Below the pieces are notes generated by a model, which saw only the letters and a program-made list of their open reading frames with translations, did not search any database and had not been told where the DNA came from. Of a stretch of 64,000 nucleotides of DNA, positions 18,982-26,408 are shown piece after piece. Where the stretch lies: the NCBI GenBank assembly GCA_004764695.1, contig SMSO01000014.1, positions 5,694,029 through 5,758,028 of the forward strand. Direction: 5' to 3'. The position numbers and the translations under genes are program-made. This stretch comes from Schizochytrium sp. TIO01 (lineage: Eukaryota > Protista > Bigyra: Labyrinthulomycetes). Within the stretch, counting starts at the first letter, position 1. Every line of letters starts with the position of its first letter.

Positions 18982-21900
18982 TTATTCAAAAATATAAGGG
19001 CCTAGACATCCCAATGCTTCACTAAAGGCAACATTTGCAGCTTCCAACATATCAAGCTCTACTTTCTGCGCAGCAATATAGTCCTCTTTTGAACTCAGCA
19101 TACCAGACCTGTTCGCAAGCCGACCTTGGACAATAAGACTATGCTGCACTGAAAACGGCATAGAAAGTGCATCGTTTACAACATGTATACAACGAAGCTC
19201 ACGAGATATCTGTATAAGACTTGTCCTTCTTGTCTTTGCAGAACAAATTTGCTTATTCAATTCGAGCTCCTCGCGCATTTCATTCATCCCCCAGGGCATT
19301 CTAGTACCAGTAAAAACCAAATGACATCAACTCCGTTCGTCAGTTTACAATTTCACGTCATTCAAAGGTACCCACAGTACTGCCAGTACAGTTTCAATTA
19401 TTCTCTGATGTTATCATGCTCTCTGTTAGATCCACACTCAACCAAACATACAATTCCACAAGAAACTTGCAATGGCGCGAAGAAAAAAATCGGCAAAATA
19501 ACACACTAGACAACCCACGAAGCAACGAACCAACCAACCAACCAAGCCTCGTGTAAAAACGAGTCCATAAGCTACGGTGTTGCTAAGACAACTTACGATA
19601 GGGATGTCAGCGACCGGTTCTCTTTCAGCGCCGCAGCCACTGCCTTGGCGCCCTCGTAGCCGATCTTGTTGTAGGAAAGACTGTCGATTTGATTGAATGA
19701 TGGCAACCAATACATTACATTGCAATGCATTACATTGGATACATGCATGGACGTGAGTGATCTAGGTTGGCTTTCACCATTTATCTTTGTTGTGTTGTCA
19801 TTTTGCTCTTTGTTCGATGGATGTATACTCACTCAAACAGACAACCCATCCATCTATCAAACAACCAAGCGATTGCATAAACTTGCAAAACAATACCGAC
19901 CCACCCACCAAACAACAAACCAAGCATCATGTACAAACAAGTCCACGAGCTGCGGTGTTGCGTAGACAACTTACTCAAGTGATGACAGCGACCGGTTCTC
20001 TTTCAGCGCCGCAGCCACTGCCTTGGCGCCCTCGTCGCCGATGTGGTTGCGTTGAAGACTGTCGATTTGATTGAATGATGGCAAGCAATACATTACACGT
20101 TACATATTACAATAGATGCACGCATGCATGCATGGACGTGAGTGATCTAGGTTGGCTTTCACCATTTATCTTTGTTGTATTGTCATTTTGCTCTTTGTTC
20201 GATGAATGTATACTCACTCACACAGACAACTTATCCATCCATCCATCCATCCATCAAACAAACAAGCGATTGCATAAACTTGCATAACAACACCGACCCA
20301 CCCACCAAACAACAAACCAAGCATCATGTACAAACAAGTCCACGAGCTGCGGTGTTGCGTAGACAACTTACTCAAGTGATGTCAGCGACCGGTTCTCTGT
20401 AAACGCCGCAGCCACTGCCTTGGCGCCCGCGTCGCCGATGCCGTTGCGTTGAAGACTGTCGATTTGATGGAATGATGGCAACCAATACATTACACGTTAC
20501 ATATTACAATAGATGCACGCATGCATGCATGGACGTGAGTGATCTAGGTTGGCTTTCAGGATTTCACTTTGTTGTGTTGTCATTTTGCTCTTTGTTCGAT
20601 GGATGTATACTCACTCAAACAGACAACTCATCCATCCATCAAACAAACAAACGATTGCATAAACTTGCAAAACAACACCGACCCACCCACCAACCAACAA
20701 ACCAAGCATCATGCACAAACAAGTCCACGAGCTGCGGTGTTGCGTAGACAACTTACTCAAGTGATGTCAGCGACCGGTTCTCTTTCAACGCCGCAGCCAC
20801 TGCCTTGGCGCCCTCGTAGCCGATCTGGTTGCCCGAAAGACTGTCGATTTGATTGAATGATGGCAAGCAATACATTACACGTTACATATTACAATAGATG
20901 CACGCATGCATGCATGGACGTGAGTGATCTAGGTTGTCTGTCAGCATTTATCTTTGTTGTGTTGTCATTTTGCTCTTTGTTCGATGAATGTATACTCACT
21001 CACACAGACAACTCATCCATCCATCAAACAAACAAGAGATTGCATAAATTTGCAAAACAACACCGACCCACCCAGCAAACAACAAACCAAGAATCATGTA
21101 CAAAACGTCCACGAGCTGCGGTGTTGCGTAGACAACTTACTCAAGCGATGTCAGCGACCGGTTCTCTTTCAGCGCCGCACCCACTGCCTTGGCGCCCTCG
21201 TAGCCGATGCGATTGCTTCCAAAACTGTCGACTTGATTGAATGATGGCCAGCAATACATTACACGTTACATATTACAATAGATGCACGCATGCATGCATA
21301 GACGTGAGTGATCTAGGTTGGCTTTCACGATTTATCATTGTTGTGTTGTCATTTTGCTCGTTGTTCGATGGATGCATACTCAGTCAAACAGACAACTCAT
21401 CCATCCATCAAACAAACAAGCGATTGCATAAACTTGCAAAACAACACCGACCACCCACCAAACAACAAACCAAGCATCATGTACAAACAAGTCCACGAGC
21501 TGCGCTGTTGCGTAGACAACTTACTCAAGTGATGTCAGCGACCGGTTCTCTTTCAGCGCCGCAGCCACTGCCTTGGCGCCCTCGTCGCCGATCTTGTTGT
21601 AGGAAAGACTGTCGATTTGATTGAATGATGCCAAGCAATACATTACATTGCAATGCATTACATTGGATACATGCATGGACGTGAGTGATCTAGGTTGGCT
21701 GTCACCATTTATCTTTGTTGTGTTGTCATTTTGCTCTTTGTTCGATGGATGTATACTCACTCAAACAGACAACTCATCCATCCATCAAACAAACAAGCGA
21801 TTGCATAAATTTGCAAAACAACACCGACCCACCCACCAAACAACAAACCAAGAATCATGTACAAACAAGTCCACGAGCTGCGGTGTTGCGTAGACAACTT

Positions 21901-24900: not shown

Positions 24901-26408
24901 AAATAACACCGACCCACCCACCAAACAACAAACCAAGCATCATGTACAAACAAGGCCACGAGCTGCGGTGTTGCGTAGACAACTTACTCAAGTGATGTCA
25001 GCGACCGGTTCTCTTTCAGCGCCGCAGCCACTGCCTTGGCGCCCTCTGAGCCGATATCGTTGCGTTGAAGACTGTCGACTTGATTGAATGATGGCAACCA
25101 ATACATTACACGTTACATATTACAATAGATGCACGCATGCATGCATGGACGTGAGTGATCTAGGTTGTCTGTCAGGATTTATCTTTATTGTGTTGTCATT
25201 TTGCTCTTTGTTCGATGGATATATACTCACTCAAACAGACAACTCATCCATCCATCAAACAAACAAGCGTTTGCATAAACTTGCAAAACAATACCGACCC
25301 ACCCACCAAATAAACCAAGCATCATGTACAAACAAGGCCACGAGCTGCGCTGTTGCGTAGACAACTTACGATAGTGATGTCAGCGACCGGTTCTCTTTCA
25401 GCGACGCAGCCACTGCCTTGGCGCCCTCTGAGCCGATATTGTTGTATCCAAGACTGTCGACTTGATTGAATGATGGCAAGCAATACATTACACGTTACAT
25501 ATTACAATAGATGCACGCATGCATGTATGGACGTAAGTGATCTAGGTTGGCTCTCAGCATTTATCTTTGTTGTGTTGTCATTTTGCTCTTTGTTCGATGG
25601 ATGTATACTCACTCAAACAGACAACCCATCCATCTATCAAACAAACAAGCGATTGCATAAACTTGCAAAATAACACCGACCCACCCACCAAACAACAAAC
25701 CAAGCATCATGTACAAACAAGGCCACGAGCTGCGGTGTTGCGTAGACAACTTACTCAAGTGATGTCAGCGACCGGTTCTCTTTCAGCGCCGCAGCCACTG
25801 CCTTGGCGCCATCGTCGCCGATATCGTTGTTATAAAGACTGTCGATTTGATTGAATGATGGCAAGCAATACATTACATATGATGCATTACATTGGATACA
25901 TGCATGGACGTGAGTGATCTAGGTTGGCTTTCAGGATTTCACCTTTGTTGTGCTGTCATTTTGATATTTCTTCGATTGATGCATACTCAATAAATCAACC
26001 AAACAAGCAAGCAAGCAAGCAAGCAAGCAAGCAAGCAAGCAAGCAAGCAAGCAAGCAAGCAAGCAAGCAAGCAAGCAAGCAAGCAAGCAAGCAAGCAAGC
26101 AAGCAAGCAAGCAAGCAAGCAAGCAAGCAAGCAAGCAAGCAAGCAAGCAAGCAAGCAAGCAAGCAAGCAAGCAAGCAAGCAAGCAAGCAAGCAAGCAAGC
26201 AAGCAAGCAAGCAAGCAAGCAAGCAAGTAAGCAAGCAAGCAAGCAAGCAAGCAAGCAAGCAAGCAAGCAAGCAAGCAAGCAAGCAAGCGAGCGAGCAAGC
26301 AAGCAAGCAAGCAAGCAAGCGAGCTAGTACGATGTTAACTTACCTCAATCTTGTAGCGCCATTCTGAAGCTTTTCAAGGGCAGTGACAACACGTGGGTGG
26401 TCCGACAT
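18982..26408 (-). CDS. Multi-exon RI-like (NLRC3-type) leucine-rich-repeat protein, ~603 aa: N-cap, 17 single-LRR exons, helical C-terminal domain
   Basis: Exon 1 is 26408-26344 (MSDHPRVVTALEKLQNGATRL+AG|GTAAGT). The 84-nt exons (plus-strand coordinates) are 25755-25838, 25370-25453, 24988-25071, 24603-24686, 24206-24289, 23819-23902, 23435-23518, 23050-23133, 22665-22748, 22284-22367, 21903-21986, 21525-21608, 21141-21224, 20757-20840, 20372-20455, 19975-20058 and 19597-19680; each is bounded by GACAG| and |GTAAGT in phase 2. The last exon is 19300-18982 (TAG|A-ATG-CCC-TGG...TAA). Total 1812 nt with an open frame throughout. Confidence 0.9.
19520..26000. repeat. Tandem array of 17 ~385-bp exon+intron units (the LRR gene body)
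   Basis: Successive exon starts are 378-397 bp apart and the intron parts are near-identical between units. Confidence 0.97.
26004..26320. repeat. (CAAG)n microsatellite, ~79 units, in intron 1 of the LRR gene
   Basis: Direct reading; few interruptions. Confidence 0.97.

Follow-up and report, generated by a model that had tools for sequence, protein, structure and literature searches.

Chromosome ends of Aurantiochytrium limacinum provide the closest described setting for the locus reported here. According to the available text of the preprint that describes them (bioRxiv 10.1101/2023.06.15.545109), 37 of 39 telomere-bearing ends carry a ribosomal DNA (rDNA) cluster, 30 of these with a 5S gene, and the gap between 18S and 5S usually holds a "Group 0" LORE-TEARS array of approximately nine units of approximately 385 bp. 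LORE-TEARS are described in that text as spacers without similarity to GenBank entries, possibly serving in chromosome-end maintenance. The locus analysed here lies in a 64,000 bp stretch of Schizochytrium sp. TIO01 (assembly GCA_004764695.1, contig SMSO01000014.1, positions 5,694,029 to 5,758,028), referred to below as the window. In it, a 385 bp tandem repeat beside the rDNA is a spliced gene for a protein composed only of leucine-rich repeats (LRRs), with 17 repeats of the ribonuclease inhibitor (RI) class encoded one per exon. This subtelomeric gene is probably a member of a family that fills the 18S–5S gap at most Aurantiochytrium ends, and its units were likely made mosaic by frequent short-tract gene conversion over the whole 385 bp.

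Related arrangements are known from other organisms, in publications of which sections were available. In Tetrahymena, a "complex direct repeat" of approximately 350 bp was later recognised as an LRR exon/intron unit, which parallels the present case (PMC6564038). The ROCO genes and the NB-ARC-TPR genes of brown algae show selection at the protein's concave face and are candidate immune receptors (PMC3341825, PMC11378527). In the HNWD genes of Podospora, four surface residues per repeat are positively selected, and a function in fungal allorecognition has been shown genetically (PMC1805685).

Structure and splicing of the LRR gene

The 17 LRR exons described by an earlier sequence-only reading at 19597–25838 are all located on the minus strand (Table 1), and 17/17 are intact and in frame. 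The introns are in phase 2 and each exon supplies 27 codons plus a junction codon, giving a 28-residue repeat of the form L-T-S-L-x-L-x-x-N-x-I-G-x-x-G-A-K-A-V-A-A-A-L-K-E-N-R-S. This repeat consists of an LxxLxLxxNxI strand followed by a helix-forming segment, the hallmark of the RI class. Single exons match Pfam LRR_6 (3/3 tried; E 1e-4 to 9e-4, below the curated cut-off as lone repeats), and the LRR exons match RI-class LRR chains in the PDB. The array introns have a mean identity of 95.1% (range 91.7–98.7).

No NTPase, GTPase or kinase is present in the gene model, and no signalling domain was found. The terminal exon has no Pfam match and so lacks the ROC-COR GTPase of ROCO proteins, and the repeats are preceded only by the leader, spliced to the first LRR, with no NACHT or NB-ARC domain. 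Foldseek analysis of the terminal-exon model returned generic helical bundles only (E≥1), VIA gave a best Z of 10.9, which is under the level trusted for bundles, and there was no usable ESM Atlas match. An executioner or signalling domain in this exon was considered and is not claimed, the structural matches being generic helical bundles only. Searches of protein collections with the terminal exon, or with an exon and its in-frame upstream intron, found no relative among longer proteins, which is weak evidence. Metagenome and viral contigs, scanned with DNA patterns, yielded 0 matches, and no LRR-exon copies were found beyond the array within the 64 kb window.

Splice joints were sought in contigs of public sequencing runs whose RNA label is guessed and whose strains or species may differ from that of the window. 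None of the runs identified is recorded as RNA; of six guessed to be RNA, four were compared with 18800–19974, and two DNA and two guessed-RNA runs with 26330–33400. A joint from 19300 to 19597 with GT..AG ends, which skips the 296 nt last intron, is present in three of the four runs, and in the fourth the acceptor of this intron is joined to another exon ending. The exon-to-exon joint from 19680 to 19597 is present in 4/4 runs. At the leader donor (26344/26345), the loose ends found in guessed-RNA runs X15 and X18 are LRR exon starts, one of which is identical to the first 29 nt of U01. No such exon starts appear at this donor among the matches listed for the two DNA runs. Splicing is therefore shown for the gene family rather than for this very allele, since the runs may come from other strains or species and 18800–19974 lacks a DNA control.

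The runs contain 848, 502, 1580 and 344 variant contigs, and the first exons joined to the leader differ; both observations fit several loci, without counting them. Bins covering the exon, the leader and 5S have a higher summed contig depth than introns or single-copy contigs; this depth represents neither copy number nor expression level and was not used. Within the terminal exon, a second joint at 19242 is seen in three of the four runs. Of the best-supported differences listed for this exon, 8/9 fall at first or second codon positions (hand count; 221 further rows), and the tail may differ between paralogs or evolve fast.

Recombination among the repeat units

The sequence-only reading had described the exons as mosaics in which the same 5' halves pair with different 3' halves, and this observation is confirmed. 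LQRNG is found with SE (U09) and with DA..FTE (U15), LEGNQ with DA..FTE (U07), LSYNK with DE (U12) and YE (U17), and GSNR with SE (U08) and YE (U13). LQRN is followed by D (U03, U04), H (U06, U16) or G (U09, U15), and LSSNQ occurs with DE (U10) beside LSGNQ with YE (U14). The short intron variant said to travel with LSYNK does precede both exons, U12 and U17, and the related variant before U01 includes 30 identical nt (25882–25911 = 21653–21682 = 19725–19754). In total, 16/17 exons are distinct. A further variable module, absent from that reading, is formed by the last two exon bases, which set the junction codon (D in 13/17, S in 4/17).

Recombination analysis, which had been named as the check on this mosaic, gave a significant signal with Sawyer-type and pairwise homoplasy index (PHI)-type tests. 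Of 1378 pairs of informative sites in the 16 full units, 590 are incompatible, and compatibility between neighbouring sites exceeds that of permuted ones (p = 0.0002, PHI-type). The signal is also present in introns alone (178/528 pairs incompatible; p = 0.0002–0.007) and in exons alone (110/190; p≤0.0004), and the Sawyer-type test gives p = 0.0003 both for the whole unit and for the intron. Trees of four unit parts disagree, rejecting one another in 12/12 approximately unbiased (AU) tests and 10/12 Shimodaira–Hasegawa (SH) tests, though the trees are poorly resolved.

The scale of exchange is small. Identical tracts between units reach at most 260 bp, with the next longest at 185 bp, and the two closest units differ at 13 places; mixing therefore takes place below the scale of one unit. 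No whole units are near-identical to each other, and divergence between units does not follow their spacing in the array (r = 0.14, p = 0.10). Hudson-Kaplan analysis gives 15 minimal recombination intervals, 10 of them intronic and one spanning the ATCGGC motif of the exon. In addition, patches of 22–30 nt are each found only in one edge intron plus one or two of the internal introns (Table 1), which points to conversion with short tracts. In the best-fitting neutral models the scaled exchange rate is approximately 1–2 per base, or 20–40 times intron diversity, a model-dependent figure. Short-tract exchange among units with near-identical introns, as first proposed, is upheld by recombination tests, simulations and part trees alike.

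A history without recombination would consist of duplication in tandem and, later, recurrent mutation of hypervariable codons, and it draws support from the D and Y alleles of codon 8, which are one base apart, and from several codon 5 alleles that are single-base neighbours. However, U15 joins the 12 nt left part of U09 to the four-change right part of U07, and the intron-only signal is significant. Simulations without recombination (300 runs each, those with <12 informative sites dropped) reach the observed intron incompatibility (117/300 pairs) in 0/287, 0/280 and 0/262 runs, 0/829 together, and in 2/183 runs under extreme rate variation. The compatibility tests, the composition of U15 and the simulations effectively refute this history, and the earlier statement that point mutation alone does not account for the mosaic holds beyond both chance and recurrent mutation.

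The patchwork could also be partly an artefact of assembly or polishing, in which paralogous chromosome ends or the other haplotype were merged into one consensus. In favour of this, paralogs are approximately 95% alike. Such merging is nevertheless very unlikely given that every exon is intact and in frame, that the U01 combination recurs in an independent contig spliced to the leader, that single contigs of other runs carry further pairings across ATCGGC, and that the intronic patches are rare variants rather than majority letters.

Variable positions and possible selection

Exons differ from one another at a mean of 10.0 positions, of which 7.2 (72%) lie in 14 of the 84 nt, namely codons 2, 3, 5 and 8 and two junction bases. 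Diversity per nt is 0.51 at these 14 positions, compared with 0.040 in the other 70 exon nt and 0.049 in introns. The five variable codons have a proportion of nonsynonymous differences (pN) of 0.46, compared with a pN of 0.020 and a synonymous proportion (pS) of 0.080 outside these codons, all computed outside a recombination-aware codon model. In the general LRR consensus, the variable positions are the exposed strand positions and the loop after the strand. The pN of 0.46 against a neutral level of 0.05–0.08 is suggestive of diversifying selection at exposed strand residues.

The mosaic might instead be a neutral by-product in a structural or housekeeping LRR gene, axonemal or nucleolar for example, that lies in a zone homogenised with the rDNA. 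This fits with the recombining introns, with the homogenisation expected of subtelomeres and with the axonemal RI-class proteins found among the best PDB matches. Its prospects are nonetheless slim, as a neutral model predicts the opposite of what is seen: the 14 nt are approximately tenfold more diverse than introns, their differences are mostly amino-acid changing, and they fall at exposed LRR positions.

Exchange at the ATCGGC motif

The sequence-only reading placed the shuffling around a conserved ATCGGC core. The motif is indeed present in 16/17 exons, but it is not the longest invariant run of the unit, since it is exceeded, for example, by an exon run of 16 nt and by one of 17 nt where the intron begins. 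Linkage does drop at this point. Codons 2–3 and 5 are linked (5/17 pairs versus 1.25 expected, p = 0.002) and the left part of the exon is linked to the upstream intron (r = 0.37–0.42), whereas codons 5 and 8 are unlinked (3/10 versus 3.4 expected) and codon 8 is independent of both the left part and the upstream intron. Two of the three discordant pairs across ATCGGC differ at codon 8 by 1–2 nt only.

The drop in linkage was compared with uniform exchange fitted to the introns, using the chance that at most two in five left-identical pairs have codon 8 in common. The three best-fitting models put this chance at 0.033, 0.095 and 0.083, and the models accepted in >10% of runs at 0.03–0.33 (27 of 32 planned parameter sets). 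Selection keeping alleles old, or repeated single-base change between D and Y, would raise these values further. A hot spot at ATCGGC is not needed to explain the unlinking, although a mild local excess is possible. Breakpoints occur throughout the unit, and the part of the earlier claim that tied the shuffling to this motif is not upheld in that form.

A stronger form of that claim holds that a small parts list supplies discrete 5' and 3' cassettes and that these are exchanged mainly at the ATCGGC microhomology, through a hot spot or targeted, VLR-like copy-choice. Random linkage across the motif, combined with linkage retained between codons 2–3 and 5 and into the upstream intron, is what such swapping would leave, and the best-fitting uniform models give a P of only 0.03–0.10. 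This form is still unlikely. Introns contain 10 of the 15 minimal intervals and each of the four types of traceable patch, other stretches are more conserved than ATCGGC, a single base separates codon 8 D from Y, and related runs hold many further alleles. Among 12 listed junction strings from these runs (150 further rows), nine reach codons 2–3, seven of them from a single run, and 0/9 match the 10 alleles of the window (hand-read). These are many more alleles than a small parts list would allow, and that element of the sequence-only reading, which overall is partly supported, does not stand.

Chromosome-end setting and relation to Group 0 LORE-TEARS

The order inward from the telomere is (CCTAA)n, the 371 bp and 411 bp repeats, the rDNA, the LRR gene and 5S, and this layout agrees with the published A. 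limacinum chromosome end in order, orientation and distance. As far as the available preprint text allows comparison (bioRxiv 10.1101/2023.06.15.545109), both ends terminate in TTAGG repeats and have a unit of approximately 385 bp between a telomere-facing 18S and the nearest 5S. The repeats distal to 28S measure ~366 and ~406 bp there versus 371 and 411 bp here, the distance from 28S to the telomere ~9.4 kb versus 9.15 kb, and 5S lies ~10 kb further in the publication versus 11.8 kb from the 18S start here. Unlike Group 0 as published, the present unit is an LRR exon and intron of a spliced gene and is present 17 times; the two were compared by position and length, not by sequence. Because the array has the position and unit length of Group 0, it is very likely that Group 0 LORE-TEARS are a hidden LRR gene family built of this exon-intron unit.

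Two proteins of the window are identical at 424/425 and 516/517 positions (99.8%) to MMETSP0958/0959 records, which are presumed here to be from A. limacinum. The taxid in the headers of these records, 87120, belongs to a fungus, and that of A. limacinum is 87102; two digits were probably transposed. The 371 bp and 411 bp repeats contain no LRR motif in six frames. Each is 5 bp above the corresponding published unit (366 bp for Group 2, 406 bp for Group 1), possibly because the strains differ or because homopolymers were shortened in the earlier assembly. No reading of LORE-TEARS as LRR genes was found in the literature searched, which lies mostly outside subscription papers, and "leucine" or "LRR" has 0 occurrences in the main text of the A. 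limacinum papers checked. The LRR gene and 5S are divergent, with approximately 450 bp between the ATG and the 5S start (26409–26863), and this short spacing may tie the chromatin or regulation of the two genes.

Proposed mechanism and significance

The simplest account would be concerted evolution together with diversifying selection on a one-LRR-per-exon gene. Frequent short-tract gene conversion would act across the entire 385 bp unit and homogenise the introns and the LRR scaffold (0.04–0.05 differences per nt), while, at exposed positions of the LxxLxLxxNxI strand and in the following loop (0.51 per nt), diversifying selection would maintain alleles that are old and divergent. These alleles would be reassorted in steps of one or two codons, without need of a site-specific hinge; ATCGGC would be the gap between two selected sites, where exchange would show most easily. 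One variable strand residue is encoded by the codon split by the intron, and intronic exchange would therefore also recombine the binding face. Unequal crossover probably sets the copy number (17 units here; ~9 typical of Group 0). Sub-repeat mosaicism by conversion is expected from concerted evolution with diversifying selection and is not new in kind.

Swapping of this kind would likely vary what the protein binds, and the chances that its role is the recognition of variable partners, viral or other non-self ligands, appear about even. Programmed somatic diversification is improbable; somatic diversification by simple mitotic exchange is rated higher than the programmed form. A bolder and rather doubtful extension would have every rDNA-capped Aurantiochytrium end bear an expressed LRR receptor gene (dozens of genes, hundreds of units), with the recombination that homogenises the rDNA swapping codon-sized binding residues fast enough for new alleles to arise in clonal lines. 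This would amount to a recombining, subtelomeric recognition repertoire in the model mirusvirus host, hitherto classed as non-coding spacer.

Several points weigh against the proposed explanation. The RNA status of the runs is a guess, they possibly represent other strains or species, and the intron-skipping stretch has no DNA-run comparison. SH tests left 2/12 cross trees unrejected, and the AU test is inclined to reject where trees are poorly resolved. The simulations assume neutrality and panmixia, and at a best-fit P of 0.03–0.10 a local excess at ATCGGC is possible. Identity with Group 0 is drawn from position and unit length, with sequences not compared, and the family claim extends from one inspected chromosome end to others. 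Finally, several axonemal LRR proteins among the top PDB matches make a structural role possible.

The weight of the finding lies more in the likely identity with Group 0 LORE-TEARS than in the sub-exon mosaic itself. If Group 0 represents these genes, a variable LRR family has been overlooked in a model protist, beside the rDNA at most chromosome ends, and a published genome feature would be re-read from spacer to gene. Thraustochytrids are amenable to genetic work, and mirusviruses are carried persistently by A. limacinum, as stated in the available text of PMC12606086. For these two reasons, an issue posed for brown algae would become directly testable, namely whether the LRR exon arrays of stramenopiles form a recombining repertoire for recognition and undergo somatic change.

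Other features of the window

A second, unrelated RI-class LRR gene (38480–40639, plus strand) has a few introns that are short and unlike one another, a long LRR exon without introns and a tail resembling a coiled coil, and forms a contrast to the homogenised array. The ORFs at 41315–57805 are ordinary, long and intronless, and the 18-intron LRR gene stands out against them; they presumably encode PP2A B''-like, DEAH helicase, LYR-motif, diaminopimelate decarboxylase-like and DDHD/PH/PX-like proteins. The region 27980–30500 comprises a 311-codon open reading frame (ORF; 28432–29367) without a Pfam match and adjacent DNA, has several diverged variants in DNA and RNA-type runs, and is possibly another subtelomeric multicopy family beyond 5S. 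A broken-frame fragment at 31289–31760, which we take to resemble the end of an ABC-F type ATPase, is possibly a pseudogene.

A 197 bp element is present in two copies (31967–32163 and 18090–18286) that are 96% alike and have short inverted ends as well as telomere-like GGTTA repeats in their interior. The copy at 31967–32163 has a 9 nt direct repeat at its ends and is missing from contigs of runs X1, X2 and X15, which identifies it as a polymorphic insertion resembling a miniature inverted-repeat transposable element; many other flanks are loose ends.

Table 1. Coordinates of the LRR gene, its repeat units and the surrounding chromosome-end features (positions in the window).
Feature	Position	Strand	Remarks
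Whole LRR gene model	18982..26408	-	19 exons, 1812 nt coding sequence, 603 aa, no internal stop; frame check and splice junctions
Leader exon	26344..26408	-	ATG, 21 codons + 2 nt; no signal peptide or NTPase evident from sequence
First intron	25839..26343	-	Contains 82-copy 4 nt microsatellite; 3' part has unique 22 nt and 30 nt patches common to internal introns
385 bp tandem array	19529..25989	-	16.8 copies; unit = 84 nt exon + 294–313 nt GT-AG intron
LRR exon U01 LYNND-IG-DD	25755..25838	-	
LRR exon U02 LGYNN-IG-SE	25370..25453	-	
LRR exon U03 LQRND-IG-SE	24988..25071	-	
LRR exon U04 LQRND-IG-SE	24603..24686	-	Identical to U03
LRR exon U05 LYGNY-IG-DE	24206..24289	-	
LRR exon U06 LQRNH-IG-DE	23819..23902	-	
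LRR exon U07 LEGNQ-IG-DA..FTE	23435..23518	-	
LRR exon U08 LGSNR-IG-SE	23050..23133	-	
LRR exon U09 LQRNG-IG-SE	22665..22748	-	
LRR exon U10 LSSNQ-IG-DE	22284..22367	-	Core is ATCGGA
LRR exon U11 LEFNE-IG-SE	21903..21986	-	
LRR exon U12 LSYNK-IG-DE	21525..21608	-	
LRR exon U13 FGSNR-IG-YE	21141..21224	-	
LRR exon U14 LSGNQ-IG-YE	20757..20840	-	
LRR exon U15 LQRNG-IG-DA..FTE	20372..20455	-	Left part as U09, right part as U07
LRR exon U16 LQRNH-IG-DE	19975..20058	-	
LRR exon U17 LSYNK-IG-YE	19597..19680	-	
Last intron	19301..19596	-	296 nt, GT-AG; unique 22 nt and 24 nt patches common to internal introns
Terminal exon	18982..19300	-	105 codons, predicted all-helical (pLDDT 77, single sequence)
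24 nt patch, intron after U05	24119..24142	-	Same as last intron 19510–19533; in no other unit
22 nt patch after U09	22630..22651	-	Same as last intron 19562–19583; U09 exon end also matches U17
22 nt patch before U15	20546..20567	-	Same as first intron 25921–25942
18S-5.8S-28S rDNA	9554..15080	-	Transcribed toward telomere
5S	26864..26982	+	Faces away from telomere
Chromosome end	1..8559	.	(CCTAA)n telomere 1–406; 371 bp repeats 1155–5928; 411 bp repeats 6521–8559; resemble LORE-TEARS Groups 2 and 1

Comparison with known systems

The array has the features of the one-LRR-per-exon class, with equal-length exons, phase-2 introns that are spliced and recombination among units, the last as seen in this array only. 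Tetrahymena LRR arrays likewise have one LRR per exon and phase-2 introns with a junction codon, and their young arrays lie near subtelomeres and undergo ectopic recombination or conversion, as here (PMC6564038). They differ in having 90 nt exons against 84 nt here, a link to a REP retrotransposon and thousands of dispersed genes; in the sections of that study available, shuffling is shown for whole exons, and no link to rDNA or 5S is made. ROCO genes and NB-ARC-TPR genes of brown algae, also stramenopiles, have one repeat per phase-2 exon and intragenic recombination, with 72 nt exons and a ROC-COR GTPase, and their introns contain exons that are non-coding or inverted, according to the portions available (PMC3341825, PMC11378527). 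In contrast, the present gene has no GTPase, no stray exons in the window and a repeat of the RI class.

HNWD proteins contain a NACHT domain, and their repeat region is intronless. In evolutionary logic, these Podospora genes (het-d, het-e) are nonetheless the closest system, as the available text reports concerted evolution with near-identical WD40 repeats (PMC1805685). Lamprey VLR assembly, as covered in the available part of PMC6995607, similarly builds LRR diversity by conversion-like copying over very short homology, but it is a programmed somatic assembly on an incomplete germline gene, supplied by flanking donor cassettes. Here the gene is complete, no copies of its LRR exons were found elsewhere in the window, and there is no sign of somatic or programmed change. 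Its mode of working would resemble that of the Podospora, Tetrahymena and brown-algal systems, but by the features examined the gene is not a ROCO, NLR or VLR. It is distinguished by its RI-class 84 nt unit, introns that are 95% alike, a sub-exon patchwork, a protein free of any signalling domain and a probable fixed place next to the rDNA at most chromosome ends.

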